A DNA stretch of 64,000 bases from Pseudomonadales bacterium (GCA_046710535.1 JBKEHH010000014.1:13927-77926), one strand, 5' to 3'. Positions 2,308 to 50,047 are shown, counted from the stretch's first letter. Program-made: numbers and translations. The notes: a model not told the origin generated them from the sequence alone.

Positions 2308-3269
2308 ATGGTCTTAAAGTCTGAGATCAATAATCAAAACTGGTTTCCACTTCCAAAGCAAGACATGCGCTGAGCGGTGGTCGATAGCCTAATCTCACAA
2401 ATAGCTCAGTCGTATAGTTTTGAGCTTGTTGCTGATGATGATTCTAGGCGCAGCTCTGCAGGTGATATTCAAATTGGTATTGACCTAGTTGAAAAGGCCC
2501 AAATCGTTAAAGTGTCTGCACAGTGGAATAGCAGTAACGGTGCCAGCCATATTAGTAACCATAGCCTGAGCTACACGGCAAGCTTTACGATGAAATATAC
2601 AACACAATGGAACTGCTGGGACGTAATGCAGGCAGGAATATTCTTCAGCAAATCAATGATAAGAAAATAGTAAGAACAACGGACGAAGACGATAAGCTTA
2701 ATAAGATATTGGAAAATCAAGGTGATATATCTTCCGCTCTGAAGGCTTTAGAAGAAAATGATGATACTTATATAAATTTATTAAAACTAAAGCTTAGTTA
2801 TTTAAGTAGTGAGAGTCAGCAGGAAGAAATCATTAAGGAGTTTGACTTAGCTTCTAAGCAACAATTAGACTTGGCCGCTCGGTTAAAGAGAGAGGGGAAG
2901 TTTTAACAGGCCTATGCTAATTTACGAAGATTGTGGTCACGACCTGCATTAGATGAAGAGCTGAAAAGCTCTGTGTTTGAAGAGTTATATTTTACACTGC
3001 CAATTTATCAATTAGATATAGTGCTATCAAAGATTAGCGAGAACTCTCAGATTTGTCAGCAAGACAGTACTTTGTCGTCTCGAATAGCAAAGGTTCAAGC
3101 GAGATTAGAGGCCACGCTTAAACATAATGAACAAGATATGAATAAAAGTACTGAAATTAATCAGCGTTTAGATCAAATAATGATGGTGAGTACATATATC
3201 AGTCAAACTTTTAAGGCGCAGACCATTAGCCAGCTTTCTCCTTTGCGTATATATATCGATGACATATAA
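2308..3269 (+). pseudogene. decayed gene of unknown function (Lys/Glu/Gln-rich, coiled-coil-like pieces)
   Basis: ATG at 2308, in-frame TGA at 2371-2373, then ORF 2377..2670. The frame changes into the overlapping ORF 2607..2906, and a third piece is 2931..3269. The segment is AT-rich. Confidence 0.3.
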
Positions 3270-3542
3270 GGAAAGAGATAGTTATCCAGCGTCAGCTGAA
3301 TTAAAATAACAGATGGAATATTATGATATAGGTTTTGACGTTGAAGAAAAAACTTCAGTTAAAAACAAAGTGACCTATATTTTAAAAGAAGCGGATATGG
3401 CTAAAGCGACTATTCATGCTGACGGAGGAAAAGTAAAAGTTGAAGTGGAATAATGTTTTGGGGCAGCAAAGTTAACTGTGAGACCAAATATTAATTCCTT
3501 AGTTAACATCATCTAATATACTAATTACTCGCCTCACCATCT

Positions 3543-3830
3543 TATGATGCTCCCCGTTATAGTCCTCGCTAAGATGATAAATCTCATATTTTTTCACCCA
3601 CGCAAGCAGCTGCTAATTTATTCGACAACTTCCACTGCAAGCGGCTACTGCAGGTTACTGAAGAGTTAGTGGCACAGCAACTAATGAGCCTTGGCAAACT
3701 TGAAGATTACATGCCAGGAAATTTTGATAAGCCAGACAGTTGTGGTGCGTAACCCTATTTACAGACATTGAACACAGCAGTCACGGTATCTCCAGATAAG
3801 ACATTTAAACATACACTTGGTAGTTTTTTT
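3543..3830 (+). pseudogene. C-terminal remnant of a paralogue of ORF 1568..2134
   Basis: Translation YDAPRYSPR*DDKSHIFSPTQAAANLFDNF...LGKLEDYMPGNFDKPDSCGA*PYLQTLNTAVTVSPDKTFKHTLGSFF aligns with SPYDATRYLPRQAGDVYILTPTQASAYLLDNL...IGKLEDYMPEDFNSPDLRGAFTYLRTQQKAVRAQPGKKFKRALGSFF. In-frame TAA at 3570-3572 and 3750-3752. No 5-prime part is present. Confidence 0.7.
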
Positions 3831-3914
3831 AAGAAAGTCAGAGGGTCTGTAACGATTAACAAATATATATTGCGCCCCATTTAATATTGTTGTTAATTAA
3901 TTTTTAGTATTTGA

Positions 3915-4838
3915 TTAATGGGAGTGAAAGTGCGCGCCGTCATGTGAATGCTTTGCAAGTTTTTTATCTTGTTGTTGTTGTTGTTGTTGTTGTTCTTGTT
4001 GTTGTTCTTGTTGTTGTTCTTGTTGTTTATCTTGTGGCTCGGAAATAGGCGGTGCAATCGCAGCAATACTAGCTGGCTCTTGAGCGGCTTGAAATAGTTG
4101 TGGTGACGTTTTTGTTATACCTGCATGAACATGATGATGGTCATCTTGATTCAGCGGAAAAGTATCGGGATAAGTTGTGTGCTGGTAGCTATGTAACTGC
4201 ATTAATAATAGCAATCCACCGATTAGCATCAAGGCGACATTGGCAGCTTTGCTAAAACGATTAAATGATGCAGTTTTCTTCCATGCTAATAAAATAACTA
4301 GCATCACGCTTAGGGCAGTGATTTGCCCAACTTCAACCCCCATATTAAAAGCCAGTATGTTGAGTATTAGGTCGTCCTTACCTAGGGGTAATTGTTGAAG
4401 GCGTGTTGATAATCCAAAGCCATGAATTAAACCAAATATAAACACCACCCATGTCAAATTAGGCGATGGCGTTTGAAAATATTTTTTGAATCCATCCAAG
4501 TTATCAAAAGCTTTGTAACAGACGGTTAAGGCTATAACAGCATCAATCAAATAATGGTTCGCCTTTAGCGACAATAAAGTGGCGAACACCAGTGTTATTG
4601 AATGACCAATGGTGAAGGCAGTAATAAATTTAATAATATCGCGGAAACTGGTTAAGAAAAAAATCACGCCAAACAGAAACAATAAATGGTCGTAGCCCGA
4701 CAACATGTGGGTAGCGCCTAGGCGCATATATTCAACCGCCCCTGCATTTAATATGCTGGCTTGATCTTCGGCTGACATGCCATGAGAAAAGGCATTAGCG
4801 CTGAATAAACACACTAGGGTAATTGTTAGTAATTTCAT
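3915..4838 (-). CDS. HupE/UreJ-family metal (Ni/Co-type) transporter with a His- and Gln-rich C-terminal extension
   Basis: Signal peptide, HxxxGxDH-like motif (THMLSGYDHLLF) and multiple TM helices. The tail reads DDHHHVHAG...QQEQQQEQQQEQQQQQQQQ...HSHDGAHFHSH. Confidence 0.75.
   Translation of the reverse strand: MKLLTITLVCLFSANAFSHGMSAEDQASILNAGAVEYMRLGATHMLSGYDHLLFLFGVIFFLTSFRDIIKFITAFTIGHSITLVFATLLSLKANHYLIDAVIALTVCYKAFDNLDGFKKYFQTPSPNLTWVVFIFGLIHGFGLSTRLQQLPLGKDDLILNILAFNMGVEVGQITALSVMLVILLAWKKTASFNRFSKAANVALMLIGGLLLLMQLHSYQHTTYPDTFPLNQDDHHHVHAGITKTSPQLFQAAQEPASIAAIAPPISEPQDKQQEQQQEQQQEQQQQQQQQDKKLAKHSHDGAHFHSH
3969..4025. repeat. trinucleotide repeat inside the hupE-like gene: (TTG)8 TTC (TTG)3 TTC (TTG)3 TTC (TTG)2 on the + strand
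   Basis: Read directly. It encodes QQEQQQEQQQEQQQQQQQQ on the minus strand. Confidence 0.95.
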
Positions 4839-5050
4839 CGAGTAATACTCTAATAATATTTGGTTTGATACATTAATAAGAACGCCTAAATACCCATAGG
4901 TGACCTAGTATGGCATTATTATCAGGTTTTAAGTTCTAGCATATAGGCAATATATAGTAACAATGTTGGTTAAATAATGGCTGCGCACTGTCAGCCGTAG
5001 TGGATAACCGTCCCCGAGTTATCCGCAGAAAAATTACAGGCTAAACTGAA

Positions 5051-6040
5051 CTATTTTGACGACGAACGTTTGGCAATTTCTTCATCCAATATTTTAATCA
5101 GTCGCGCTCGATTAAACTCATGGGTTTGGCCATCGTTTAGTTCTAACATTTTGCTAAGTTGACGACGGATAACGCGGTCGGCTTGTGCCACTGTTTCAAT
5201 AACTAAATAACGGCTTTTGGGCGCATCACTGTGCATTGCATGTAACGCCGCTTTACCTACTGGGTCAGGGTCGGGCTGTAGATCCATTTTAGTCAGAGCG
5301 TCAAGCAGATAAGCGCGCTCTTGCGGATACGCGGTATCTTCGGTCCAGTAGTTATCGTCATCCATTAGTTTTTTCGCCGCTACACCGATGTTCGACTTAT
5401 AGGTGCTTGGCTCAATAATATGCACACTGACATCAAAACGTGCCATTTCCGTAGCCAGCGTGTCGGTGTATGCCTCAATGGCATGTTTGCTCATGCTGTA
5501 AGCGCCAAATACAGGAATAGTAACAATGCCCGCAACTGAACCGGTGGTAGCTATACGACCTTTACTTTCAATTATTAGTGGGGCAAATGCTTGAGTCACT
5601 CGCACTACGCCGTAAACGTTAACATCCATCTGGTAGTGTAGTTGCTCTACTGGTACTTCTAGTACTGGCCCAAAAACGTTAACTCCAGCATTGTTAATTA
5701 GGCCATATAAGCCCCTACCTTGTAATTTGACGAAGGTTACCGCGGCGTTAATTTCAGTTTGGCTTCGTACATCAAACTGAACGGCGGTAACGTTGTCCAT
5801 TTTGTTCATGGCAGCCATTTCATTTTTATGTAAAACCCCGGCATAAACGTAAAAACCATTTTGTGAAAGCTGCTGCGTCATCTTCAAACCGAGCCCAGAG
5901 TTAGCCCCTGTTACCAATACGGCTTTTTGAGTCGCGTTTGCTTCACCATTGTCCGCGGCCGTAAGAGATAAGCTCCCACATAGCGCTAGGGTAAGTAAAA
6001 TAAACTGAAATCGTCTCATATAGATTGCCTGGTGGGTCAT
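5051..6040 (-). CDS. SDR-family oxidoreductase with N-terminal signal/anchor
   Basis: VLVTGANSGLGLK (TGxxxGxG), NNAGV, YSMSKHAIEAY (YxxxK). Confidence 0.85.
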   Translation of the reverse strand: MTHQAIYMRRFQFILLTLALCGSLSLTAADNGEANATQKAVLVTGANSGLGLKMTQQLSQNGFYVYAGVLHKNEMAAMNKMDNVTAVQFDVRSQTEINAAVTFVKLQGRGLYGLINNAGVNVFGPVLEVPVEQLHYQMDVNVYGVVRVTQAFAPLIIESKGRIATTGSVAGIVTIPVFGAYSMSKHAIEAYTDTLATEMARFDVSVHIIEPSTYKSNIGVAAKKLMDDDNYWTEDTAYPQERAYLLDALTKMDLQPDPDPVGKAALHAMHSDAPKSRYLVIETVAQADRVIRRQLSKMLELNDGQTHEFNRARLIKILDEEIAKRSSSK

Positions 6041-6294
6041 TGTTGATGGTTACCGCGCTGATACTAACGGTTATTGCCTTAAAAAAGAGAGAAATCGTGT
6101 AGATATTTATAAAACGTTAACTGGTCAGAGTGAATATGGTTCGATCAAACGGTATACTAAGCCTTGCTGCAACAAACTAATAAGGCTATGCAAATAGTAG
6201 TTGTGTTGATCATATTGACTCAGTGACGAAATAATATTTTAAACGGACGCGGTTTTAATCTATAAGGGTTTTAGCCTGTTATATCAATCTTATT

Positions 6295-6501
6295 ATGGAG
6301 GACTATCAAATGTTTAAGTTATTCATCTTGATTATGTTGTTCTTTTTATCAGTTTTGATTGTGCGTGAGTTGAGAAAATATTTCACTCGCGATCAAAAAG
6401 AAGAGAAGTTACGTGATACCCTTATTAAAGGTGATTTAGTCGACATCGAGTTGGAAATTACTGGAGAAAAGCGCGTCAGCAAGATGTTCGTGCTGCAATG
6501 A
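6295..6501 (+). CDS. small single-TM hypothetical protein
   Basis: 68-aa ORF with one hydrophobic helix (FKLFILIMLFFLSVLIV). No family recognised. Confidence 0.3.
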   Translation: MEDYQMFKLFILIMLFFLSVLIVRELRKYFTRDQKEEKLRDTLIKGDLVDIELEITGEKRVSKMFVLQ

Positions 6502-6543
6502 ACGATCTGAAATCAGTAAATAACAATATCAAGGATAAAAGTA

Positions 6544-6899
6544 ATGACTAAAATTCCCGCTAAACTAATCGTATTATGAGTCTTGTTCGCAGCAACCTTG
6601 GTTGTACTTTTTATGGCGTTCGGTATCAATAATGCCGGTCACCGAACCGTGGTGAAGGTGACGGTGCCTATAAGCGTTTCGTAATCGAAGCGGATGGTGC
6701 GCTGGCGCAGAAACTAGAAACCTATGAGGCTGTGATGGGGCGCTTTGCAGCGGCTATCGAGAAACTAAAGAAGGTGCCTGAAGTGCAAATGGGCGGGGGC
6801 GCTGGTGCTGATGGCGGCTCAAACGCCATGACTCTGATTGAAATGATGAGCGTAAAAGCGGCTAAAGATTTGGCTTTGGACATGAGCGTCAATAAGTAG
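6544..6899 (+). pseudogene. SPFH/band-7 (prohibitin-like) gene remnant with a large internal deletion
   Basis: The N-terminus reads MTKIPAKLIVL*VLFAATLVVLFMAFGINNAGHRTVV (TGA at 6577-6579). It joins out of frame to a typical C-terminal tail GEGDGAYKRFVIEADGALAQKLETYEAV...GGGAGADGGSNAMTLIEMMSVKAAKDLALDMSVNK*. The central SPFH domain is missing. Confidence 0.5.
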
Positions 6900-6974
6900 A
6901 ACTAAGTGGTTTAGCAATAAGGGGTCAGAATGAATGATCCCATCAACTACCAATAGTAGTTTGAGGAATCGACA

Positions 6975-7421
6975 ATGGCTTCTGGAAAGAGAGAAACAAT
7001 ACTGACGTTTATTGCCGAGCCTACGTCGGCTAATTTTGCCGGCAACGTACACGGCGGCAGTGTAATCAAATGGCTGGATCACGCCGGTTATGCCTGCGCT
7101 GCCGGTTGGAGTGGGCGCTATTGCGTGACTGCTAATGTAGGTGGTATCTAGTTTCGCAAGCCTATACATATGGGTAACTTGGTTTGTGTTAGCGTAAAAA
7201 TTATCTACACCGGTACATCAAGTGTACATGTGCTTTTGGACGTGAGCGCCACCGATCCTAGAGAAGACAGCTACCAGTCTACAGCTCGTTGCATTCTGGT
7301 TTTTGTTGCCATGGGCGACGATAAAAAGTCGATGGCGGTTTAGGCTTGGGTTGCAGAAAAAAATGTTAAGGCATTGGCTGAAGCGGCAATGCGGTTAATG
7401 CACACTAGCCGAGCGATTTAG
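6975..7421 (+). pseudogene. hotdog-fold acyl-CoA thioesterase (YciA/Acot-like) inactivated by nonsense codons
   Basis: MASGKRETILTFIAEPTSANFAGNVHGGSVIKWLDHAGYACAAGWSGRYCVTANVGGI*FRKPIHMGNLVCVSVKIIYTGTSSVHVLLDV...DDKKSMAV*AWVAEKN... In-frame TAG at 7149-7151 and 7341-7343. The TAG at 7419-7421 may be the native stop. Confidence 0.75.
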
Positions 7422-7601
7422 GAGGATACTCGATCCGCAATAGTTGCTGGCTATGAGTAAATTGTTGGATGACCCAGATTAGTTTGATCCCATCAGTCAT
7501 TCCCGCTTAATCACAGTTTGGCTATTTGGCTAAGCAGAGATTCGGCTCAGTGACGCCCTAATAAACCGAGTTAACAATTTTTAAGCGATTTCGCAATTGA
7601 T

Positions 7602-8365
7602 GTGGAAACAAACGCATTAAAAAGATGGGCTTTATCCCTGACCAGTGGGAAGCAGCTATTGCCGACTGGCCAGTGATGCGGCGCTACCAAGGTGCAGACC
7701 ACGACGCGTTGCGAAATATGGCTTTTCGTTTTTTTGTGCGCAAAACTATTATCTCTGGCGTGGTTTTCAGTTTACTAATGATATATGCCTAAAAATAGCC
7801 ACTAAGGCATGTGTGCCTGTTCTACAGCTCGGCTTAGATTGTTATGACCGCATGTATACCATTATTGATTACGAAGGTGGGTTTATTCCCAATCGTCCTT
7901 ATTGCAGTGCGTATGGTGTTTTTCATACCAGAGGCCCTGGTTTAAGCGGCGAAGTCTGGCTGCATGGGCCGCTGATTTTGTCATGGGAAGTGGGAAGTGG
8001 TAAGTGCAACTGGTGCCCATGCGAGTGCTAATAAAGCCAGTAACGCGGTTATTCATGAGTTTGCACACAAGTTAGATATATTGCGCGATGGTGCCAACGG
8101 CGCTCCGCCTATGCATCCGGCTATGAAACCATGTGAATGGCATGATATTTTTACCGCGGCCTGGGAGCAATTACAGCGAGATATGCAAAACAGTAGGCCA
8201 TTACCCCTGGATGACTATGGGCTAACTAATCCGGCTGATTTTCTTGTTGTGTGCAGTGAGACATTTTTCGAGCACCCAGAAAGCATGAAACAACGCATGC
8301 CAGAGGTTTATCGACTGCAGTGTCAGTTCTATCGTCAACAGCCAGTCGCGGCGATTTACGTTTAA
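7602..8365 (+). pseudogene. mtfA: MtfA-type zinc peptidase (M90) with frameshifts
   Basis: Homology runs across frames. IPDQWEAAIADWPVMRRYQGADHDALRNMAFRFFVRK is in frame 2, which closes at 7790. GFQFTNDICLKIATKACVPVLQLGLDCYD...SGEVWLHGPLILSWEV is in frame 1. NAVIHEFAHKLDILRDGANGAPPMHP...YRLQCQFYRQQP returns to frame 2 and carries HExxH. Confidence 0.75.
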
Positions 8366-8628
8366 GATGATTTTTTAGAGGTAACTAGGTGTATAGTTAT
8401 GGCATATCTGTACAAAATGCATCCAATGTAATGCGTCATGCGGCCACAAGGTCTATAATAACCAACTGTTTAGTATGGTTTTTGCTTTCAGGCGTTGCGG
8501 TGATTGTTTTTAATCAATCATTACCCTTGGTCTAACTAGCAATAATACTTTAAAAACAATATACGCTGTGGCCAGATTAATTAGTGCGACGTATATTAAA
8601 ACAATAATTTTAAAAGGAGCACCTTGTA

Positions 8629-8895
8629 GTGCAAGAGAAAATTACCGTGGTAGTTGATTACCTAAATGAAGTGCAAACACGCTGCACCTTAAGTGCCGCG
8701 GCTGAAGCGATAGGGATTACATCCCAAGCGCTTAAAAAACAAATTGGTGAGCCGCGCCCGGAAGTTTCTTGGCTGGTTAGTCCAACCACTGGCGAGCCCA
8801 TTAATTACGCCGAAGGTGACAAACATCCTGAGCTTTATCGTACCAAGCGAATGATTACGTCTGCGACGGTTTTAAAACGTAACCTTGGCTTATAA
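8629..8895 (+). CDS. hypothetical protein, possible HTH
   Basis: 88-aa ORF with GTG start. Segment CTLSAAAEAIGITSQALKKQIG is HTH-like. Confidence 0.35.
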   Translation: MQEKITVVVDYLNEVQTRCTLSAAAEAIGITSQALKKQIGEPRPEVSWLVSPTTGEPINYAEGDKHPELYRTKRMITSATVLKRNLGL

Positions 8896-8929
8896 AGAGC
8901 TAATATGTTGTTAACAGCGGCCTGTTGCA

Positions 8930-9370
8930 GTGCGCTTTGACTTGGCGTTTAAGCAAATAGCGGAAGTTCAGAGAATAGGGCCATCTTGTGAAGTGCGATG
9001 GCCAGGTCATAAACACCCTAGCAACTGTTCAATACGAGTTCGAAATAATCTTGATATAGACGCTAGCCGTCAGGTTGTATGGGCGTGGTTGACTCATGCA
9101 ACACTTTGGCCTACTTGGTATGAGAATGCTGAAAATGTCTGTATTTTAGATGGTTCAGCGGTTGGCCTCGAAATTGGTTCTACTTTTCGCTGGAAAATCA
9201 TGGGAATCACCGTCAAATGCATGGTGGTCGAATACATCATTAATGAACGCCTGGCATGGAGTGGTCGAGCTTACGGTATTGATGTTTATCATTCTTGGGT
9301 TCTAGCGCCGTTAACTAGCGGTTGCAGTGTAATAACAGAGGAGACGCAGAGATGCTTGCTAGGCTCGTAA
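8930..9370 (+). CDS. SRPBCC (polyketide cyclase/dehydrase-like) family protein
   Basis: ASRQVVWAWLTHATLWPTWYENAENV...FRWKIMGITVKCMVVEY...RLAWSG is typical of SRPBCC domains. The start codon is uncertain. Confidence 0.5.
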   Translation: MRFDLAFKQIAEVQRIGPSCEVRWPGHKHPSNCSIRVRNNLDIDASRQVVWAWLTHATLWPTWYENAENVCILDGSAVGLEIGSTFRWKIMGITVKCMVVEYIINERLAWSGRAYGIDVYHSWVLAPLTSGCSVITEETQRCLLGS

Positions 9371-9555
9371 AGATGTATCTGCCTGCTAAAATGTATAGTA
9401 CACATCAACTATGGCAAGACTTTTTGCAAGCAAATGCGTGCAGTGGGCTTCCACCAGCAGCATAACTAAGAGCTGTTGCACTGTTGAAGCAGACGATTGT
9501 TAAACTACTTAAACTCATCAAAATATCTAATAATCTAGAGTTATAAATTGACATC

Positions 9556-10500: not shown

Positions 10501-10545
10501 CTACAGAAGTTGAACGACTGTTTATAAAAAAATATTAGGAAGAAT

Positions 10546-21829: not shown

Positions 21830-22603
21830 ATGAGACAAATTGTATTAGATACGGAAACTACCGGCTTAGACCCTCTGCAAGGCCACAAGATTATTGAAAT
21901 TGGTTGTGTAGAGCTTATCGACAGGCGGTTAACTGGCAGGCACTACCATCAATACATTCAACCACAGCGCGAGATAGATGCTGGGGCGATGGAAGTTCAT
22001 GGTATTACTCAGGAATTCTTGAAGGAAAAGCCGATATTTGGGCACATAGCCCAAGAATTTATGGATTTCGTTAAAGGCGCTGAACTGATCATTCACAACG
22101 CCCCGTTTGATATTGGCTTTTTGAATGCGGAGCTAAGTAAGCTGCCCCATTCATTAGGTATTATGAAAGATCATTGTACGGTGCTGGACACCTTGGTAAT
22201 GGCCAGAAACATGCATCCGGGCCGCAGAAATAGTTTGGATGCCTTATGTGACCGCTATGATATAGACAATACCAGTCGTGATTTACACGGTGCATTACTT
22301 GATTCTGAGATTTTGGCAGATGTATACATCGCCATGACATCGGGTCAAACAGACTTAGCCTTAGGCGGGCAGCTTGCTGGTGGCAATAGTCTAACTCAGC
22401 ATATAGAAGAAATTATTCGCTTAGATAGTGGCAGAGCTAAGCTGCCAGTAATTGCAGCCAACGCGGAAGAAATTGAACGTCATCGAGAGTGGTTGGCCGA
22501 ACATCGCGCCGAAGATCAGCCCGATGTTTGGCCCGGCGACAGGCTAAAGCCCATGGACGGGCTAAAGCTCCACGATGAGCTAAAGGATCAGCTATTACAG
22601 TAA
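21830..22603 (+). CDS. dnaQ: DNA polymerase III epsilon subunit (proofreading exonuclease)
   Basis: IVLDTETTGL, IIHNAPFDIGFL, HGALLDSEILADVY (ExoI-III motifs). Confidence 0.95.
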   Translation: MRQIVLDTETTGLDPLQGHKIIEIGCVELIDRRLTGRHYHQYIQPQREIDAGAMEVHGITQEFLKEKPIFGHIAQEFMDFVKGAELIIHNAPFDIGFLNAELSKLPHSLGIMKDHCTVLDTLVMARNMHPGRRNSLDALCDRYDIDNTSRDLHGALLDSEILADVYIAMTSGQTDLALGGQLAGGNSLTQHIEEIIRLDSGRAKLPVIAANAEEIERHREWLAEHRAEDQPDVWPGDRLKPMDGLKLHDELKDQLLQ

Positions 22604-24099
22604 GTACATTACTGGCAAAAAGCCTGTGGTAGACATAGTGATGGTTTAGGGCAGAGCCATAAATACCATTCGACCGTAAGACAAGCGCAGCAATGGCGCG
22701 ATAGCCGAGGTTAGCAAAAACAAAAACGCTGCTTGGCCATTGGGTGTCGCCATACTAGGAGTGTTAGTTCCGGTATTGATCGCAATTGCTAAGGTATTAA
22801 AGTGCTCGCAGGTAATGTCGCCGGCGTCTAGTGCAGCCTTCACTTCATTGATGTATACCGTTGCTACAAATACGTTATCGCTAATCATCGATAAGAATCC
22901 GTTAGCTAAGAAAAATACCGGTGCCTGTATTTCGATATTTTCCATGGTCAAAACCATGTGGATAATAGGCGTGAATAGATGCTGTTCGTGAATAACAGCC
23001 ACAATGGAAAAGAACACCACCAATAACTCAGTAAAGGGTAGAGCCTCTTCAAAAGCGTGGCCAATTTGATGCTCTTCAATGATGCCGTTAAAGGCGGTGA
23101 GTAGGACAATAACGGTTAGGCCTATCAGACCAACAGCTGCCCAATGTTGTGCTAGTGCTATAACTAAGAATATAGCGGTGACAGCAGATACCACTAACAC
23201 TGCTTTTTGTTTAGCGCTGCGGCTCTCTGTTCGTAAATCATCGAAGTCTTGTAATACCGTACGTACACTTTCTGGCAGCTTACTGCCATAACTAAAAATG
23301 CCTAAATACTCTAAAGCTTCATAGGTGGTTAAGCCTACGGCTAGTACAGGCATAGTAATTGGGGTCATACGTAAGAAAAACTCGATAAAGTCCCAATCTG
23401 CAGTAATAGCAATTAATAAATTTCGTGGTTCACCAACCAGAGTACAGACACCTCCAAGTGCTGTACCTACCGCGCCGTGCATTAACAAACTGCGTAAAAA
23501 AGCCCGAAACTCTTCTAAATCTTCGCAACGAATCGCAACTACTTCGGTGTCGCCGCTGTGGTCGTGGTCGTGATGTACTGTTTTACCGGATGCAACCTTG
23601 TGATAAACAGAATAAAACCCAACATCAACGCTAATTAATACCGCTGTTACTGTTAATGCATCTAAGAATGCCGATGAGGCGGCGGCCATGATTGAGAATA
23701 ACAAAGACAAGAAATGCTTAGATTTTACTTTGAGTAACACTTTGGTAAAGGCAAATAGTAATAAGTCCTTCATAAAATAAATGCCGGCTACCATAAACAT
23801 AAGTAGCAAAACGACCTTAAACAGACTCAATGTTTCTACATAGACGGCGTCTGGGGTAGTGAGGCCTATAAGAACGGCCTCGATAGCAAATAAGCCACCT
23901 GGTTGTAATGGTAGCATTTTAACGCTAAGGCTAAAGTAAAGATAAACTGGCCAATTAAAGCCCAACCATTCACAAATGGGCCTGTAACAGCTAGTAAAAC
24001 GGGATTGAGTATTAAAAATCCTATAATCGTTAATTTGTACCAGCTAGGCGCGTTACCCAAAAAGTTATTGGCCATGCCGCGAGAAAACGTTTGTTGCAT
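22598..24099 (-). pseudogene. nhaB: Na+/H+ antiporter NhaB, inactivated (frameshift plus nonsense)
   Basis: The N-terminal piece [33 protein letters not shown]...[12 protein letters not shown] continues in another frame as [16 protein letters not shown]..., a 1-nt loss in a C run near 23910-23912. An in-frame TAA at 22646-22648 stands where homologues have Tyr (MALP*TITMSTTGF versus MALPYTLVLTLVG). Confidence 0.85.
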
Positions 24100-40058: not shown

Positions 40059-40101
40059 AGCTGCTTTTAAACAACTAAAAACATTGATAGGAACATAAGT
40101 T

Positions 40102-40866: not shown

Positions 40867-41660
40867 GCGCTTTTGGCTCTAGTGATGAATTTTGAAACTC
40901 AAATAACGGTGTGTTCGCCGATATAACATCCTCAAGTGCGTTATAACTTCGCAACATTGGATAGGATCCACCATTAATATTGAACATGCTAGTTGCGCCA
41001 GACGGGGTAATATCAAGGTTAGTCTTAGGCTCGTTCGATTTGTCAAACGGACGGGTAAATACTGCGACCATATAATGTTTATTACCCCAAGGTAAACTCG
41101 CTCCTTCGGGAACATACGGCGACAATACGCGTGAGCCTAAAATGAGTAAGTCTTGTTCAGATTTAAAAGAGGTAATCCCTTGAGTTACTATGTTTTGACG
41201 CAAATATCTATGTAGGCTAAGAATTGCAGCGGTATCAGGCTCTGGCAATAACAAATTGCTAGGGCTAAAGTTAATCAGATCTTTCAGGCTTACCGTTGAC
41301 AGTATGTTTAGCTCACTGTCTAACAATGCTGTATGGCTAAGACCTTTAACCTGACTGCTCAGCTGATAAGAGAATTCAATAAAAACTGGCTTCTAATGCG
41401 TGTTTTCTGGATTGGTTTTCCTTCTCTAGCGCAAGGCCAAAGCCCTGACTTTATTCTCCAGCTTTACTCAGTGCAGAGTCGATTTCAGATACCGCTTTCT
41501 CTACATTAAGCAGGGCAATCTTTAAGGCGAACTTAGTCCTATCAATTTCAGTCAAACGACTTTGATCGAATAATATTTTCCAAGAGCCCATCGCCATTAA
41601 GATCACTATCACCAAAATAACGAGCACTAACGTTAAAATAATTCGTTTCTGAAATCGCAT
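40859..41660 (-). pseudogene. 5-prime remnant of a membrane sensor (TM helix plus periplasmic domain), disrupted and truncated
   Basis: MRFQKRIILTLVLVILVIVILMAMG... with a stop at 41451. It continues in other frames (…KPVFIEFSYQLSSQVKGLSHTALLDSELNIL…SPYVPEGASLPWGNKHYMVAVFTRPF…). No second TM or output domain is present. It ends overlapping the SDR gene's 3-prime end. Confidence 0.35.
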
Positions 41661-42728
41661 TACTTGTTGTTATCTTCCATTATTTTAAAATTTGTTTTGG
41701 CAGGAAATACAAGCCACTGTCGCAGTCTCAATGCCGCTGATAATAAATGGGGCTTAGGATAGCTTCTTGCCATTACCTCTAAGCTAGAGTTTACCTCTTT
41801 ATCTTCAAAAAATTCGTCGGAAAGGTGGGCGAGCGCAGCGTTATTGGTAGGCGAGTGCCACACCTCTAGTGAATTTTTTCGCAGCCACTTTGCTATCGTT
41901 TAGATGAGACAGAAATTATATCGCTAACTGTGATGAATTATTAGTCTTAGGAATTGCCCAGCAATCTACCCGCAATGGCATCCCTTCTTTGGGCGCAACA
42001 TACTTGCATTCTGTCTGCCCGATGGTTTCAGCTATTTCTTCGGCATTGCCGTTAAAAGCCATTACAATAACGATATCACTTAGTTCACCTTTTGTTCGGC
42101 GTAAGTCATGCCCAGACTATAATCTTTAATGTAGGGCATTTGTTGTTTTAACAACTCCAAGGCCTGTCTGAAATCATCGATATTTTCAGAGGCCATATCT
42201 TTTCCTATAGCAAGCAACAACACTGAGATTGTACCAAAGTCATCGAGTGGCAATATTATGCGTTTGCCCACTTCAGCAGGGGGATTAAACAATTGGGTCC
42301 AGCTGGTGATTTCTTCTTTGATAATTGACGTACGGTAGATAATCCCATTACTACCCCAAGCATAGAGCACACCATAAGGCCCACAAGTATCAATATATTT
42401 CTGCGTCTGATTCTATAGCTCAGTAACGTTTAACTCAGTAATGTTCTGTAGTAGCCCACTCTCACCAAAGAGATCTCCCGTCTGAATCCAGTATAAAAAT
42501 ATCGTAGTTAATAGCATTTGCAGAAAGAATGTTTCTGTTGCGATCACCTTCATTATCGTAATGGGCCTCGCGAATTTTATGCCCGGTTTTGTTTTCAAAT
42601 AGAGCATCAGTGTCGGCACCCAAATTTCTCGCCCAGTTATAGATTAACAATTCGTCAGCGACTACCACGCAGGTGACAGGCATGAGTATTAGCGCTACTA
42701 GCAATTTATTAACTTTAGATAATAACAA
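41660..42728 (-). pseudogene. PotD/NspS-like polyamine-type periplasmic binding protein, multiply disrupted
   Basis: The pieces in order are: ELLIYNWARNLGADTDALFENKTGHKIREAHYDNEGDRNRNILSANAINYDIFILDSDG; DLFGESGLLQNITELNV; YGVLYAWGSNGIIYRTSIIKEEITSWTQLFNP...; GDIVIVMAFNGNAEEIAETIGQTECKYVAPKEGMPLRVDCWAIPK. They lie in at least 3 frames and are separated by stops. Confidence 0.65.
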
Positions 42729-43368: not shown

Positions 43369-43687
43369 AGGCGGTATAAGCCTATAGATGCAATAGGGTT
43401 GATGTGTTTATATAAATGCATTGCGATGTCGCCTTAAGATTTAAACCAATAACCGTAGTTAAGCGTATGTATTCGGTTGTAGCTGATATATTTAGAGATC
43501 TATTGTGCCGCATTCAGCCGTAATTGAACAAAAATCAGCTAATATATGGTGCTAATTTGGTGCACTGACAACTTTCTGTACGGTAGATCAAAAAAAGAGT
43601 TATTTTTGCGAAAAATTGGTATCAGTATTCTAAAGCATAGTGCTAGATTAGACTTCATTGTAAACCCTTCGTTTAGGACCTAATAAA

Positions 43688-45163
43688 TTGATATTGTTGT
43701 TAGACACCGAGAAAAAACTAAAATTTGTCTGCGATCAGGCAAATTCATATGACGAATGGTTAGAAGCCGCGACTGCCTATGACGATAAGCTAGGCCATTC
43801 CCGCTGGAAGGTTTATGATCAGTCAACCCAATATGACTTCGTATCTATTCGCCAGCGCCTAGATGAGTTGCGATCACTGCGGGCAAGACATGACCATAGA
43901 GGCCTACTATTTACCTTGAATGAAGGTATTCACGGCAATATGGGCGGCATGGGTAAGGCGTTGCTGTATGGCCGCGCTATGTTAGGAACGAAACAGTTAA
44001 TTATCGACTATGTTGACGAAATTGTTGATGCACTAGAGTTAATAGCCAGTGACGAAGTCGTTGATATTTCGTTCGAAGAAAAACTGGATTTTTTCCGTCG
44101 CGCCCATCACTGTTTTGGTAGTTCAGCATTTATGATGAGTGGTTCGGGTTTATTACTGTTTTTTCATGTTGGTGTTGTGAAAGCGCTATCAGAACAGGGC
44201 TTATTGCCAAACATTATATCGGGTGCCAGTGGCGGATCTATAGTAGGCAGCTTAGTTTGTACGCACACGGACAAAGAACTTAAAAAATTACTAAACCCGG
44301 AATACTTCGCGAAATTGATCTTGAGCACGCCTGAGATTGAAGAAAAAGCAAATCGTATGATTCCTCCATTGATAGAAATTGAAGAGATTCATGTGATTGT
44401 TAAGCGGCTGATTCCCGATATGACCTTCAAAGAATCATTTGAGAAAACAGGGCGTGTTCTTAATATATCTGTGGCTCCCGCAGAAACACATCAAACATCA
44501 CGTTTGCTGAACTCAACGACAACGCCAAATGTGTTAATTCGCCAGTCAGTTTTAGCGTCAGCTGCAGTTCCCGGTATATATCCACCGGTGACATTAGAAG
44601 CTAGAGATAGCTATGGCCAACGTAAGGCGTATTTGCCGTCGCGTAAATGGGTTGATGGTTCGGTCAGTGATGATATGCCTACTAAGCGCCTAGCTAGGCT
44701 ATATGGTGTTAATCACTTCATTGTTAGTCAAACCAATCCGGCAGTATTACCGTTTGTATCGGACAGTCTGCGTCCTAGTGGCAACCGTGCCATTATTAGA
44801 AGCACCGTAGCGAGAACGGGCCGAGAATGGGTTAATGCTGCAGCAACAATTGCGCGTAAACCATTACAGCGTAACCCCAGCTTACATCGAGCATCTAATT
44901 TATTTTTATCGCTACTGAATCAAAATTATTTAGGCGACATTAATCTGGTACCTAAAAATCGCTTTCCAAATCCTTTTACCTTATTGGCGTATCCCTCGGC
45001 GGAAAAGATTGCCCGCATGATGAAAGACGGTGAAAAGTCTACCTGGGGACGAATGGAAATGGTTCGTAACCAGACAAAAATTAGTCGTACTCTTGATGCT
45101 ATTGTTAGAGATTACGAAGAAGACTTTATGAACATTCATAAAGATAAGGTCCAAGCCGGATAA
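43688..45163 (+). CDS. patatin-like phospholipase (DUF3336-type N-terminus)
   Basis: GASGGSIVG (GxSxG) and VDGSVSDD (catalytic DG). Non-ATG start as listed. Confidence 0.85.
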   Translation: MILLLDTEKKLKFVCDQANSYDEWLEAATAYDDKLGHSRWKVYDQSTQYDFVSIRQRLDELRSLRARHDHRGLLFTLNEGIHGNMGGMGKALLYGRAMLGTKQLIIDYVDEIVDALELIASDEVVDISFEEKLDFFRRAHHCFGSSAFMMSGSGLLLFFHVGVVKALSEQGLLPNIISGASGGSIVGSLVCTHTDKELKKLLNPEYFAKLILSTPEIEEKANRMIPPLIEIEEIHVIVKRLIPDMTFKESFEKTGRVLNISVAPAETHQTSRLLNSTTTPNVLIRQSVLASAAVPGIYPPVTLEARDSYGQRKAYLPSRKWVDGSVSDDMPTKRLARLYGVNHFIVSQTNPAVLPFVSDSLRPSGNRAIIRSTVARTGREWVNAAATIARKPLQRNPSLHRASNLFLSLLNQNYLGDINLVPKNRFPNPFTLLAYPSAEKIARMMKDGEKSTWGRMEMVRNQTKISRTLDAIVRDYEEDFMNIHKDKVQAG

Positions 45164-45169
45164 TACCAA

Positions 45170-45799
45170 ATGGCTTTAGCCAATACGGTTGTCGTACTCG
45201 ATTTTGAAACCACAGGCTTATCACCAGACGAAGGGGATAGGGCTATCGAAATTGGTGCAGTGCGTCTTGTCGACGGTGAAATTGTTGACCACTTTCAAGA
45301 ATTAATGGACCCAGGCAGGCGCGTCAGTGGTTTCATCGAAGACTACACCGGTATTACCAACTCTATGCTTAGTGGCGCCGATTCTTGCGCAGCGGTGATG
45401 AGGCGTTTCAGTGATTTTATCCAAGACGATAATTTAGTTGCCCATAATGCCTCATTTGATAAGCGCTTTTTAGACGCTGAATTTAGTCGTATTTCAACAA
45501 CATATCGTGGCGAGTTCTCATGTTCACTGTTGGCAACACGACGTATCTTTCAAGCAGCGCCTAATCACCAGCTTGGCACCTTAGTTAAATACAATAATAT
45601 AGAAAGCAGTGGTGGGTTTCACCGCGCGTTATATGACAGTGAAATGACTGCTCATGTGTGGAATAAAATGCTGCTATCTTTAGCGCAACATTATTCGCTA
45701 GGTGAAGTATCGTTTGAGCTTATTCAAAAGATAAACAAAACACCTAAGAAGCAGATTCATAAATTTTTAACAAAGCACGCGCAAGACTTGCAGAATTAA
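45170..45799 (+). CDS. DEDDh 3-prime-5-prime exonuclease (DnaQ/epsilon-like)
   Basis: VVLDFETTGL, LVAHNASFDKRFL, HRALYDSEMTA. Confidence 0.85.
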   Translation: MALANTVVVLDFETTGLSPDEGDRAIEIGAVRLVDGEIVDHFQELMDPGRRVSGFIEDYTGITNSMLSGADSCAAVMRRFSDFIQDDNLVAHNASFDKRFLDAEFSRISTTYRGEFSCSLLATRRIFQAAPNHQLGTLVKYNNIESSGGFHRALYDSEMTAHVWNKMLLSLAQHYSLGEVSFELIQKINKTPKKQIHKFLTKHAQDLQN

Positions 45800-45823
45800 C
45801 AGGCTATGTCGACGCCGATATAA

Positions 45824-46333
45824 CTACTTTGGCTTTACTGTTAAATGGTTATTTGCATCTCGGCTGCTAATAATTAACGCATCATTAGTCTCAATGTCAG
45901 CCTTGGCCAGCCTGTCATACAACACAACATTAACCGTAGCCGCCAAATTTAGGCAGCCCACAGTGGGTATATAAACAACGTCATCAGCCTGATCGATAAT
46001 GGCCTGGCTAATGCTGCCATCTTCGGGGCCAAAAACATAATGTGCATTACGCGGATGAACGTAAGAGGGCAGAGGTATTGCGCCTTCAACCAGCTCTACA
46101 CAGATAATCTTTGTGTCTTTAGCCAATTCATCAAGTACCGAGTCTTTATGGATTAAAGGGATATTACCAGCATTTTTTTGGGTGTCGGTATTAAAAGGTA
46201 AAGCGCGGTTAAGTCTATTACCCGAATAGGAAATACTACTTACTCCAAAGCAACCCGACGCTCGTAAAACCGCCCCAACATTAGTTGGACTTTTAGGGTT
46301 AATAAGGCCAATTGATAGTTTGGGCGCTGGCAT
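45824..46333 (-). CDS. SpoU/TrmH-family RNA 2-prime-O-methyltransferase
   Basis: NVGAVLRASGCFG, FGPEDGSIS, CLNLAATVNVVLYD. Confidence 0.8.
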   Translation of the reverse strand: MPAPKLSIGLINPKSPTNVGAVLRASGCFGVSSISYSGNRLNRALPFNTDTQKNAGNIPLIHKDSVLDELAKDTKIICVELVEGAIPLPSYVHPRNAHYVFGPEDGSISQAIIDQADDVVYIPTVGCLNLAATVNVVLYDRLAKADIETNDALIISSRDANNHLTVKPK

Positions 46334-46426
46334 AAACAGTTAGTCTCGCTACAGTTTTTGCATTTAGTTTATCATCTATAGCGAATAACTGGCATATCAA
46401 TGGATCGGCAGAAGACCTTGTAGCTG

Positions 46427-46693
46427 TCATTGCTCCGCCAGTATTAGGTTAAATTTCGTATAAAAATCTTCTAATGAGCGTTTGTCTGGTGAATCTACTT
46501 TAAATTTATTATGGAAGTACAAATATAACGTTGAGTCTCTATTTGAAATCATCAATGTGTAGCCGTCGAAAGAGCTTTCCGCCTGCAGCCCTTGGTAGAA
46601 TTTACCACCGTCTTGAGCTTCACCATGAGTATATATGGTATTAAACACTGCCATGATATCTCGCGGCGCTAACTTTCTCTCATCAGTTTTCAT
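46427..46693 (-). CDS. hypothetical protein (intact copy of a duplicated small gene)
   Basis: 88-aa ORF. A decayed paralogue at 48227-48436 supports real coding. Confidence 0.45.
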   Translation of the reverse strand: MKTDERKLAPRDIMAVFNTIYTHGEAQDGGKFYQGLQAESSFDGYTLMISNRDSTLYLYFHNKFKVDSPDKRSLEDFYTKFNLILAEQ

Positions 46694-46987
46694 ATTTCTC
46701 TATGACTCTCTTGGTGAGCAAACTTACGTGCCATTATACCAAACAGATTGGAGACGAAACGATAAAGGTAATATCGGCCGAAAAGTAAACGTAGATTTGA
46801 CCATGGCTGTTAAGTCATTAAAGTAAGAGTTTTTTCGATTACTCTCGACAGATCTTAAAAGCTTCATCAATAATTCGAGCGCCGGCATCACTGTGTGTTC
46901 ATCCCATTATATGCTTCCCCTTCGCTATTAACCAGTGGTGACTAACACATACGCCAAAGCTCGCATGACCCACGTCAAATAATAATT

Positions 46988-48124
46988 CTATTTTTCCTCA
47001 AAAGTAACATTAGGCTCATTTTGATCAACATAAGCTTCTGTTAAATAGTCTCGGAAGCTTTCGTCATTTTGTAAAAAAGTTTTAAAAAATGCGACACCGT
47101 AAACGTTTTGTATGCGAAGAGACTCATCAACTGAAAACACATCAGGTGCACAAGTGTTTTCATAAATTGCTTGCAAAGGCGCTGCCGCCGGGACTAATGC
47201 AACCAGTTCATCAAAGCTGGGAAAAAATTCTAATGCGGCCTTTGCGATGTCGCAGGAGGTGGTGAAATGGTTATGACCAGCACCGACTATTTCAATATTA
47301 TAGACTGGCGATTTATCAACCTTAGCAAACGCTTCTCTGTTGGTTTCAATCGGCACACTAGTATCCAAGGTACCGCCAAGAAGTAGGGTAGGAATAGCTA
47401 GGCTTTTGTATTGTCCATCAGTGATCGGGGCGGCGGGGACAAAAAACCATCCTGCCACCGGCATACTGGCGGTTACGCGAGGATCTGCAGGTGCATCACC
47501 AAAACCGACAGCCATCCCCAGGGTCGTTACACCACCAAAAGAATGCCCTGTTACGCCAACGCTGTCTGGTAGGATCGTGCCTTCAAATCTGTCGCCGCTA
47601 GTACTGCTCATTATTAACATCTGATCGATAACAAATGACATATCTGCTGCACGATTTGCAACCTGCACAGCTAATTCATCGCCATTATCGCCATTTGCAT
47701 TACCGGCATGAGTTGGTGCAGCGACAATAAAACCCTGAGTAGCTAGCGCTTCCATCATCGAATAAGCCTGATTGCTCAAACCACCACTTCCGTGTGAAAA
47801 CACAATCAAATTACGGTCAGGTTTCTGTGACACCGGTAAAACTTCGCCGGCAATTTCAGATGTAATACCAATGCCATTTCCTAAATCATAAACCGCAGCC
47901 GGATCAGCCAAAAAGTCGATATCATCAACTGGATACCATATATCTACTTCCAGTTGTCTGTTGTCTCTCGTTGAATCAGTTATTGTAAATTTATCATAAC
48001 CAACACCAGAGGTGCCTTTTATTGACGGCAACTCTAACGGGAGAACCACTGATCTATCGCTTCCGCCGCCGTCACAAGCCGACAACAATGTAACTAGACC
48101 AGTTATTAAAACGAAACGCAGCAT
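46988..48124 (-). CDS. alpha/beta-hydrolase lipoprotein (PAF-acetylhydrolase/lipase-like)
   Basis: Lipobox LLSAC, nucleophile elbow VTGHSFGG, second motif FSHGSGG. Confidence 0.75.
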   Translation of the reverse strand: MLRFVLITGLVTLLSACDGGGSDRSVVLPLELPSIKGTSGVGYDKFTITDSTRDNRQLEVDIWYPVDDIDFLADPAAVYDLGNGIGITSEIAGEVLPVSQKPDRNLIVFSHGSGGLSNQAYSMMEALATQGFIVAAPTHAGNANGDNGDELAVQVANRAADMSFVIDQMLIMSSTSGDRFEGTILPDSVGVTGHSFGGVTTLGMAVGFGDAPADPRVTASMPVAGWFFVPAAPITDGQYKSLAIPTLLLGGTLDTSVPIETNREAFAKVDKSPVYNIEIVGAGHNHFTTSCDIAKAALEFFPSFDELVALVPAAAPLQAIYENTCAPDVFSVDESLRIQNVYGVAFFKTFLQNDESFRDYLTEAYVDQNEPNVTFEEK

Positions 48125-48226
48125 AGTAGATTCCTTTTTACTTATAATTTGGTTGGTTGTTTAAAGTACCGCACAGATACTAATGCAGAGTAGGGGTTCA
48201 ACCTAGAAATCACGTAATCTTCAATA

Positions 48227-48436
48227 TTAAATTAAATTCAGTATAAAAGCATTATTATGAACGAGTGTGAGTTCTCCAAATTTGAATTTATTATGCAAGT
48301 CTATATATGCAGCTGAGTCTCTATTTCAAATTATCAAGGCATAGTCATCTACAGAACTAGCGTCAGCATGAGTATAAATAGCACTCAACACCGGCATGAT
48401 ATCTCCTGGTGTAAGCTTTCTCTGGTCATTATACAT
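48227..48436 (-). pseudogene. decayed paralogue of ORF 46427..46693
   Basis: MYNDQRKLTPGDIMPVLSAIYTHADASSVDDYALII*NRDSAAYIDLHNKFKF... compares with MKTDERKLAPRDIMAVFNTIYTHGEAQDGGKFYQGLQAESSFDGYTLMISNRDSTLYLYFHNKFKV. There is an internal deletion and an in-frame TGA. Similarity extends into the 5-prime leader. Confidence 0.65.
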
Positions 48437-48802
48437 AATGCGTAATACGTATTTTTATTTTAGGCTGACTGAAGCGACTAAACGGACGTATTATTACGCC
48501 AAATAGATTAAAACAAAGGGGAATTAAAACTACTAGTTTGCCAAGAACTGAACTCTAGTTTTTATCATTGGATTTTAGAAATCGTGTTAAAGCAGAGCTG
48601 CAAATTACTTACTCAATACAGTTTTTACCACCAGAATATTCTTGATAAATCAGTGATGTCTTTTTTGGGCTACGCCAAATTTTTACTCAAAGCAGTAATA
48701 TCACATATTGTCTTTTACTAAAAGTACATAAGTACTAATAAATATTATCAATAGATAGGGATGCCGATCCAACCACACGCACCCTATCTTTTCTTGATAA
48801 AG

Positions 48803-49597
48803 CTATTTCTTTGCTAGTTTCACAGGACGACGCAATTGCATATTGTACAATCTCGCAACGTTGCAATGTACTATATCACCAAAAATTTGGCGGGCTTTCA
48901 TGACACCGCCACCTGTGCCATAGGCGTCAAAGGCATTGCCAAAATCAACATAATTCGTATAGCCCTGAACCATTTTAAAATCAAAATCCACATCACCGCC
49001 ACCAAAAGCAGGCCAGAGAGTAAGCATAGGGCCGGTAATACCTTTGTTAGTTAAATAGTCACCCCAAATAGTTAAGGCAGCACCTGCGTCGGCAGGTGTT
49101 TTACCTTCGGCAATTTTGCAATCAGCAAAGGTCATTACCGCAGTATCAGGTGTTTCTACCGGACCTGCAGTTATTACATTAACTGCGAAGCTAGCATGTT
49201 GTGGGCAGTTCATGACCTTAAAGAAATCCTTAGTAGCATCTTGGCCTTTTTTGGACATCGTTTTTTCTATAGCTGCTCCCATTGATTTGCCGTCAGGCCA
49301 AAATCCCATCCAGACCACATCCATGTTCACACCAGGATCATTGAACATCGGTGTGAGTGTTATGCCTAAATAGTCATGCTGTTTTGTTTTATCCATCCAA
49401 GAGTTCCACTTGGCGGTCGCCTTATTTACTCCGCTAATATTTTGACCGTCTTTGTAGTTACATAAAAATATCTCTGCGGGTGAAAATTTCGGACCTTGAT
49501 GATTATCTGCCATTGCTGGACCACTGACTAACAGTGCTGCAAAAAGTGAGATAGTGGTTGAAACTAATTTTAAGGTTTTTATTGGTTTTATTAACAT
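48803..49597 (-). CDS. secreted hypothetical protein with apparent internal two-domain duplication
   Basis: Signal peptide ...LLVSGPAMA. Two halves of about 100 aa share a C..W..(W/Y)..L.P.F...G.A...G...F..(V/I)..C pattern. Confidence 0.5.
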   Translation of the reverse strand: MLIKPIKTLKLVSTTISLFAALLVSGPAMADNHQGPKFSPAEIFLCNYKDGQNISGVNKATAKWNSWMDKTKQHDYLGITLTPMFNDPGVNMDVVWMGFWPDGKSMGAAIEKTMSKKGQDATKDFFKVMNCPQHASFAVNVITAGPVETPDTAVMTFADCKIAEGKTPADAGAALTIWGDYLTNKGITGPMLTLWPAFGGGDVDFDFKMVQGYTNYVDFGNAFDAYGTGGGVMKARQIFGDIVHCNVARLYNMQLRRPVKLAKK

Positions 49598-49875
49598 ATC
49601 AATCTCTCCTTGAAGTGAAGAGCAAGTGTATGGGTCGTACCAAAAGTAGCAATGTGCTGTTTATACTCTATTTGTCTAAAGATTATTTTTTTCAGAACTT
49701 GCTAACATTTCATTCCATTTTATATTACTAAATAATTTACTAGCTTGCTTATCTGAGCGAGAAATCAAGCAGCGCTAGACTACTAAATATATTTGTTGTG
49801 CCAAGGAACAAAGCCTATGGTTTGTAATTGAGTTTGTGAAATGGGCTGAGTAATTGTTGAAAGCGTTTTACTAAC

Positions 49876-50047
49876 ACCAGCTTTGCCAGCTAATTTCCTC
49901 ATTAGAGTTATATAGGGAATGTCTAAAGAAAGGCATAACAATTACGCCAGGGTCTTTATTTACATCGCAAGGTAATTACCTGAATTTTTACAGCTTAGCT
50001 ACGCACATCCATGGAATGCTCAGCGAACAGATGGACGACCAAGCTAA
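49876..50047 (+). pseudogene. 3-prime remnant of a MocR/GntR-aminotransferase-like (PLP fold-type I) gene
   Basis: ...LELYRECLKKGITITPGSLFTSQGNYLNF, then after a 1-nt shift, LQLSYAHPWNAQ... This is the typical C-terminal PG..F....LRLSYA.PW pattern. There is no upstream part. Confidence 0.4.

Follow-up and report, generated by a model that had tools for sequence, protein, structure and literature searches.

Decayed genes in a 64-kb genome stretch of a Porticoccus-like marine bacterium

What has become of a bacterial genome segment in which about one locus in five is broken? The question is raised by a 64-kb stretch of DNA (contig JBKEHH010000014.1, positions 13927-77926; the whole stretch is hereafter called the window), which comes from the metagenome-assembled genome (MAG) of an uncultured marine Porticoccus-like gammaproteobacterium and was viewed together with ~7 kb of flanking DNA. 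A first-pass annotation, made from the window alone, had counted about ten decayed loci against roughly fifty intact genes, and had taken the pattern as typical of relaxed selection or a recent population bottleneck, as in early host restriction or symbiosis. Compared with their relatives, the decayed loci are, with a probability of roughly 0.85, true pseudogenes that built up on the window's own lineage after it split from sister lineages ~85-96% identical in DNA. On the best reading the decay is recent and lineage-specific, and affects accessory functions that could be dispensed with, through ordinary routes of mutation.

Decayed loci and their intact counterparts

In the window, which has a G+C content (GC) of 42%, 12 decayed loci were counted against 49 intact ones (~20% of loci). 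All ten loci that had been listed at first proved to be gene remnants lying at or very near the coordinates given, as judged from orthologs or homologs and from mapped lesions. Two more were added to them, so that the original estimate of pseudogene density was slightly low. For ten of the 12 (psi1, psi3-psi9, psi11 and psi12) a syntenic, full-length intact ortholog was found in sister contigs. The decayed loci, in window coordinates, are as follows.

psi1: 2251..3453, plus strand, decayed hypothetical gene (401-423 amino acids, aa, in relatives)
psi2: 3525..3833, plus strand, remains of a gene paralogous to the 188-aa gene at 1568-2134
psi12 (probable): 6295..6546, plus strand, small membrane open reading frame (ORF), overlapping the 5' end of the Band_7 gene in a relative; missed by the first-pass annotation
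psi3: 6544..6899, plus strand, remnant of a Band_7/SPFH gene
psi4: 6975..7463, plus strand, 4HBT acyl-CoA thioesterase, with the original stop at 7463
psi5: 7577..8365, plus strand, MtfA/Peptidase_M90
psi11: 9032..9465, plus strand, SRPBCC/Polyketide_cyc2 gene; likewise missed at first
psi6: 22598..24099, minus strand, Na+/H+ antiporter NhaB
psi8: 40872..41660, minus strand, GGDEF-EAL sensor (776 aa in relatives)
psi7: 41660..42728, minus strand, periplasmic solute-binding protein (356 aa), in one operon with psi8
psi9: ~48170..48445, minus strand, decayed DUF3081 gene, positional ortholog of L001 13961-14227
psi10: 49876..50047, plus strand, 3' remnant (~65 codons) of a class I/II aminotransferase whose 5' part is gone

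Four sets of syntenic sister contigs served as controls and jointly span 11 of the 12 decayed loci. These Porticoccus-like contigs share a common gene order with the window and have overall ~85-96% nucleotide identity to it.

Window 1-6156: contigs L169 and L170, ~90% nucleotide identity
Window 1-12596: contigs L168 and L173, ~93%
Window 18126-34108: contigs L082-L084, 93.8%
Window 35262-48041: contigs L002 (91-96%) and L001 (~83-85%)

In a scan of species-representative genomes, the closest relatives of the patatin-like protein encoded at 43688-45163 came from uncultured Cellvibrionales/Porticoccus MAGs, with amino acid identities of 95% (L001) and 93% (L002, 'Porticoccus sp. 3300046534_32').

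Approximately 36 disabling lesions were mapped, two to five per locus, and none fell within the 49 intact genes (50.3 kb of coding sequence, CDS). They comprise at least 16 nonsense substitutions to TAA, TAG or TGA, frameshifts of 1-7 nucleotides, and two large deletions of 883 and 1542 bp, both with 6-7 nucleotides of microhomology (direct repeats) at their junctions; the small indels are biased towards deletion (~13 deletions to 3 insertions). The mixture described by the first-pass annotation, in which each of the three stop codons occurs along with small indels and large deletions, is therefore present. The remaining genes either have the lengths of their sister genes or show complete coverage of their Pfam domains.

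Three of the decayed genes lie between 22 and 43 kb. The nhaB gene (psi6), aligned to L083 and to intact orthologs of 501 aa (P0001-P0005), has lost one base from a CCC run at 23911 (codon 63) and carries TAC>TAA at 22648 (codon 485 of 501). The same split gene is present, 100% identical, in contig L081 of the Logan assemblies, and its 423-aa fragment is on record at 100% identity as MFQ3324802.1, 'MAG: NhaB family antiporter [Pseudomonadales bacterium]'. In the sensor operon, psi8 (intact in L002 5325-7655 and L001 5640-7970) combines TAT>TAA at 41453, an insertion of one base at 41385 and a loss of one at 40893 with the 1542-bp deletion, which runs between CTAGTG repeats and takes out the GGDEF and EAL domains. 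Its partner psi7 (intact in L002 7655-8725 and L001 7970-9040) has a 2-nucleotide deletion at 42481, TAG at 42415, a 1-nucleotide deletion at 42093, TAA at 41918 and a 1-nucleotide insertion at 41879.

At the other end of the window, psi1 was aligned at the nucleotide level to L168 7624-8895 and L169 2373-3578, against which it shows TCA>TGA at 2371, a deletion of one base at 2572, GAG>TAA at 2904, a deletion of two bases at 3248 and GAA>TAA at 3307. Its ancestral stop lies at 3453, past the end at 3269 assigned in the first pass, and its intact homologs (P0121-P0124) are four proteins of 384-423 aa, all of the same clade. Only residues 87-188 of the psi2 product are kept (50% identity over 102 aa, E 7e-30, tblastn), with two in-frame stops. 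The same relic is found in L169 and L170, and psi2 is therefore old rather than lineage-specific; it is deleted in L168 and L173.

The Band_7/SPFH gene (psi3), whose intact ortholog encodes 415 aa (L173 14324-15571), is stopped at codon 12 (GGA>TGA at 6577) and has lost 883 bp in a frameshifting internal deletion between CGTGGTG direct repeats, leaving ~37 N-terminal and 83 C-terminal codons of the 415. These last 83 codons match SPFH/HflC-like proteins, with homologs P0125-P0152 aligned at the C-terminus only; the gene contexts of two of these (P0134 and P0131) showed no synteny with the window. Searches of NCBIfam and the PDB with psi1, psi3 and psi10 gave nothing informative. The small ORF overlapping the start of psi3 is probably decayed as well, as judged from its alignment to L173 14107-14331: a base is missing from an A-run at 6467, and the last ~27 codons are altered (psi12).

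In the thioesterase gene (psi4), whose intact ortholog encodes 162 aa (L173 15646-16134), CAG>TAG is found at 7149, 7341 and 7419, together with a 3-bp deletion at 7360, and the two halves of the Pfam 4HBT match (profile positions 2-34 and 40-77) are parted by a stop. All three stops are CAG>TAG transitions and there is no frameshift, an uncommon uniformity for one small gene. The MtfA gene (psi5; intact ortholog of 260 aa, L173 16252-17034) carries TGG>TGA at 7598, a 1-nucleotide deletion at 7760 and a 7-nucleotide tandem duplication (TGGGAAG) at 7984, so that Peptidase_M90 profile positions 40-134 and 140-243 are found in separate frames. The SRPBCC gene (psi11; intact ortholog of 145 aa, L173 17701-18138) has lost its start codon (ATG>ATA) and 4 bp at 9353, which frameshifts the last 38 codons; its Pfam coverage is limited to profile positions 2-103 of 142.

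The two remaining loci, psi9 and psi10, adjoin a low-GC (0.35) region with Tn7-like genes. Five lesions were mapped in the DUF3081 gene (psi9), namely a 39-bp deletion, a 1-nucleotide deletion, one TGA and two TAA, and a second, intact copy with a Pfam DUF3081 match is encoded at 46427-46693. This copy sits in a ~560-bp segment (46388-46974) that is not present at that place in L001 or L002. The DUF3081 gene thus seems to have moved or been replaced rather than lost. The aminotransferase remnant (psi10) was recognized by a two-frame tblastn match to the last ~65 residues of an aminotransferase, with a frameshift near 49985-50000; in an exhaustive HMMER search it matched P0153 with an E-value of 9e-10 (68% identity at P0153 residues 224-267), and P0153, P0154 and P0156 are Aminotran_1_2 proteins.

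The neighbouring low-GC DNA (35% at 48.4-52 kb) leads into a minus-strand module of four genes (50261-56263) in Tn7-like order, encoding TnsA-like (235 aa), TnsB-like (632 aa), AAA_22 TnsC-like (315 aa) and TniQ-like (519 aa) proteins, after which comes a tyrosine recombinase. The Pfam matches in this module are below the gathering score except those to AAA_22 and Phage_integrase, and the TnsB-like protein yielded no rve domain. A repeat search for the ends of the element gave no convincing terminal repeats.

Reality of the lesions and loss of selection

Since the source is a MAG, the lesions could in principle be sequencing or assembly errors of a low-quality draft, and four of the ~16 small indels do fall within A or T runs at least four long, and one further within a CCC run. 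The remaining evidence speaks against this. Logan contigs L081, L174 and L175, separate assemblies of run SRR28961167, are 100% identical to the window for a length of 22.1 kb, within which lie psi1, psi2 and psi6. At least 16 of the lesions are nonsense substitutions and two are clean microhomology deletions; the lesions pile up at two to five per locus and spare 50 kb of intact CDS, and raised nonsynonymous divergence is restricted to the decayed loci. An artefact is consequently very improbable and that reading is largely refuted, in agreement with the earlier statement that no single sequencing-error mode would account for the pattern. No paper or metadata for SRR28961167, or for the JGI sample ids, was found.

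A second way of explaining away the lesions would be that the genes remain functional through stop-codon reassignment, readthrough or programmed frameshifting. The one locus that lends itself to this is psi4, as it is broken only by three TAG codons, each in place of CAG. However, TAG also terminates 15 of 47 intact genes, with TAA ending 25 and TGA seven; in-frame stops are confined to loci that are damaged in other ways too, most of which mix different stops with frameshifts and deletions, and substitutions at the decayed loci are near-neutral. Reassignment, already discounted in the first-pass annotation, is thereby left with a negligible likelihood, as are the other forms of recoding.

The substitution patterns separate decayed from intact genes clearly. 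Pairwise ratios of nonsynonymous to synonymous divergence (dN/dS) were ~0.03-0.3 for intact genes, with a median near 0.09, and 0.23-0.54 for pseudogenes measured against the nearest sister contig. When an outgroup was used to assign nonsynonymous and synonymous changes (N:S) to branches, the counts on the window branch were 59:30 in psi1, psi7 and psi8 as opposed to 5:40 in six intact genes (Fisher p = 5e-10), and in the same three pseudogenes the sister branch gave 34:46 (p = 0.002). Purifying selection has been lost at the decayed copies. The six intact genes, by comparison, had 5:40 on the window branch and 9:28 on the sister branch, that is, no nonsynonymous excess in this small sample. 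From the branch N:S numbers we infer that the inactivations took place at differing times after the split, at ~0.2-0.8 of the branch; such a spread points to a continuing process and not to a single event. Base composition follows the same division: pseudogene DNA is slightly AT-shifted (GC 0.408 vs 0.419), and intact syntenic blocks show no AT shift between window and sisters (0.433 vs 0.437 and 0.442 vs 0.440). The relaxed selection proposed in the first-pass annotation thus holds for the decayed loci, with N:S of 59:30 against 34:46, but not for the retained genes, nor is it joined by insertion sequences (IS) or by an AT shift of the intact blocks.

The synonymous divergence (dS) from the nearest sister contigs is itself a mosaic. 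It amounts to ~0.05-0.15 for most genes and rises to 0.3-0.75 for the NMO, patatin, exonuclease, TrmH-like, MltD and RND pump genes, the regions of high dS being 38384-39355 and 43688-46333 (vs L002) and 18167-19645 and 30268-33408 (vs L083). This mosaic suggests homologous recombination among lineages. Between its exonuclease and TrmH-like genes, L002 moreover carries a 4.6-kb insertion (L002 11807-16257) with three genes encoding 451, 714 and 314 aa, which is not present in the window or in L001.

Local cluster or genome-wide decay

The density of decayed loci lies above the usual range. Most prokaryotes have 1-5% pseudogenes according to Liu et al. 2004 as quoted in PMC11078800, and at 5% per locus the binomial probability of at least 12 decayed loci among 61 is 4e-5 (7e-4 for the ten of 60 counted at first). 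At shared loci, the sister contigs have ~2-3 decayed genes as opposed to 11 in the window (Fisher p = 0.014, from rough counts). By length, 78.6% of the window is intact CDS and 12.0% is pseudogene DNA, which leaves 9.3%; functional coding density, which had been named as a check on the first reading, is thus lowered to 78.6%, and would be 90.6% if pseudogene DNA were counted as coding. Scans with Rfam and for tRNAs found no rRNA, tRNA or other Rfam family in the window, which means that RNA genes do not account for the ORF-poor stretches. Intergenic gaps of at least 150 bp were also considered as hidden relics; this was rejected for ten of the 17, which match intergenic DNA of relatives, and the other seven (at 34.7 kb, and several at 46.7-62.8 kb) had no match in sister loci and may hold further relics.

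If the window were a fair sample of its genome, around a fifth of all genes would be decaying, as expected of reductive evolution after recent host restriction or a bottleneck. The ~20% density against the usual 1-5%, the coding density of only 78.6%, and the deletion-biased indels with additional large deletions are in keeping with this, as is the occurrence of pseudogenes in the conserved backbone too (nhaB beside dnaQ/rnhA, and the sensor operon). The losses include environmental sensing and ion homeostasis, and the sisters, too, have a few pseudogenes of their own, namely a broken amidohydrolase and a beta-lactamase remnant. On the other hand, the intact genes show no nonsynonymous excess on the window branch (5:40 vs 9:28), and their blocks no AT shift. 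The IS load, a further check proposed in the first pass, gave no support: no IS element or transposase was found among the window ORFs, and the mobile genes of the 64 kb are limited to one divergent Tn7-like module and one integrase. No broken genes were found in the ~7 kb flanking both window ends, and the genes for the type II secretion system (T2SS), RND efflux, a TonB receptor and peptide transport are all intact with complete domain coverage. There is also no evidence of a host, and no literature tying Porticoccus to pseudogenes or symbiosis was found. Taken together, genome-wide reductive decay appears rather unlikely.

The distribution of the loci offers a different view. Seven of the 12 lie within a single 7-kb stretch (2.2-9.5 kb) whose gene content varies among relatives, and the decay could accordingly be a local matter of one variable accessory stretch and a mobile-element border, with an ordinary load in the rest of the genome. 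L168 and L173 are without the HupE gene and psi2, and a 1.57-kb segment, not present in the window, occurs only in L173, where it contains a beta-lactamase remnant of 78 aa (L173 12672-12908). The amidohydrolase, which in the window is intact and runs off its edge (1-1365), is broken in both sisters (L168 5444-6749, L173 7821-9126) into 3-4 ORFs with a 339-bp deletion and a branch N:S of 14:8. With more distant relatives, this stretch has the SDR gene alone in common: in a metagenome scan with the SDR protein, the best relatives were just 80% identical and synteny was limited to that gene. The exact SDR protein had no entry on record, probably owing to another start codon having been picked by the gene caller. 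The position of psi9 and psi10 next to the low-GC (0.35) Tn7-like region, and the clean flanks, fit equally well. Against a purely local origin, the syntenic backbone that holds psi6, psi7 and psi8 is well conserved, and without the first cluster five of ~50 loci are still decayed, which is at or above the usual upper bound. A local hotspot is therefore a possible but tentative explanation, somewhat easier to entertain than decay of the whole genome.

A third alternative is the first stage of a lifestyle shift, such as dependence on an algal or animal host or the entry into a narrow niche. Genome-wide shedding of sensing, ion-homeostasis and accessory functions would then have begun too early for relaxed selection in retained genes, or for IS expansion, to be seen. 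Both the shift and its early stage seem doubtful to us, more so than either of the two preceding explanations.

Recent, lineage-specific decay of dispensable genes is the reading favoured here. The genes were broken by point mutations to all three stops, by slippage indels, by the 7-bp tandem duplication and by deletions of 0.9-1.5 kb between direct repeats of 6-7 nucleotides, and after inactivation evolved near-neutrally with a bias to deletions and AT. The functions lost are the cyclic di-GMP sensor and its binding protein, NhaB, MtfA and the thioesterase, and likewise the SPFH protein with its small partner ORF, the SRPBCC protein and one clade-specific hypothetical gene. The loci psi2 and psi9 are redundant paralog copies and not functional losses, and psi10 is a fragment beside a mobile element. 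Because of the two redundant copies, and because psi7/psi8 and psi12/psi3 each form a single unit, the number of independent functional losses is nearer 6-7. Since the retained genes are under normal purifying selection, gene-by-gene loss of functions no longer needed is inferred to fit better than genome-wide drift.

Several observations weigh against this account. The evidence comes from 64 kb and ~7 kb of flanks of one MAG only. The intact-gene N:S is based on 45 changes along the window branch in six genes, and the mosaic dS (0.05-0.75), being due to recombination, blurs the assignment of changes to branches. The Logan contigs may share reads with the MAG; they rule out an error of the assembler, but effects at the level of the reads or of the population consensus would escape them. 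Furthermore, psi2 is common to other lineages and hence not recent, and psi10 is without a close intact ortholog and may have come already broken with mobile DNA.

Some neighbouring genes deserve mention. Within the variable stretch, the end of a HupE/UreJ-like gene (3915-4070) is a long Q/E-rich triplet repeat in which (QQE)n gives way to poly-Q, and an independent short-read Logan contig breaks exactly at this repeat (window position 3905). A Rho-like gene at 9556-10500 was considered as a truncated pseudogene and rejected, as the same 314-aa gene is intact in L173 with a dN/dS of 0.11. This Rho paralog matches Rho from model position 127 on, is without the N-terminal RNA-binding domain and falls below the NCBIfam 'paralog_Rho2' cut-off. 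In the T2SS cluster (56808-64000, continued in L175), gspC-D-E-L-M (minus strand) and gspF-G-H-I-J(-K) (plus strand) form separate, divergent units, and all genes are intact.

Comparison with known systems

The window is a new instance, in a Porticoccus-like lineage, of a known kind of phenomenon, the pseudogene cluster. What it is worth depends on its extent. If the density were genome-wide, the lineage and its intact sisters (~4-15% DNA divergence, from related samples) would make a natural pairing in which the earliest gene losses could be dated and ordered, and would represent a stage in a marine heterotroph that is seldom caught outside insect symbionts and pathogens. The Porticoccaceae are otherwise regarded as free-living marine heterotrophs. 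Should the early lifestyle shift prove true, it would be the first such case in this family, and co-occurring sister lineages of the same sample series would provide near-isogenic controls. If the decay is local, the window would instead be a clean worked example of accessory-operon decay, with large deletions between direct repeats of 6-7 nucleotides, in which, once one member of a functional unit has been hit, its partner decays too (sensor and binding protein; SPFH protein and small ORF). Either way it carries a warning for annotation: MAG ORFs such as the 423-aa 'NhaB' and 'hypothetical proteins' of 99, 112 and 46 aa are pseudogene fragments.

A direct comparison is with the sister Porticoccus-like lineages (L002/L168, L173, L082-L084, L001 and L169), which have the same gene order and occasional pseudogenes of their own, but hold intact copies of ten genes that are broken in the window. 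Ordinary pseudogenes of free-living prokaryotes resemble those described here in lesion types and mechanisms, in their clustering in accessory or mobile-adjacent DNA, and in the decay of redundant paralogs (as for psi2 and psi9); the density in the window (12 of 61) is, however, about four-fold above the 5% upper bound quoted for them. Recently host-restricted bacteria such as Sodalis glossinidius, Mycobacterium leprae and Shigella, compared here with the help of the review PMC11078800, are alike in having multi-lesion pseudogenes beside intact genes, a deletion bias, a lowered coding density, and losses in sensing and transport. Unlike in these, in the 64 kb examined there is neither IS proliferation nor relaxed selection on retained genes nor an AT shift in intact DNA, and the window's lineage has no known host.

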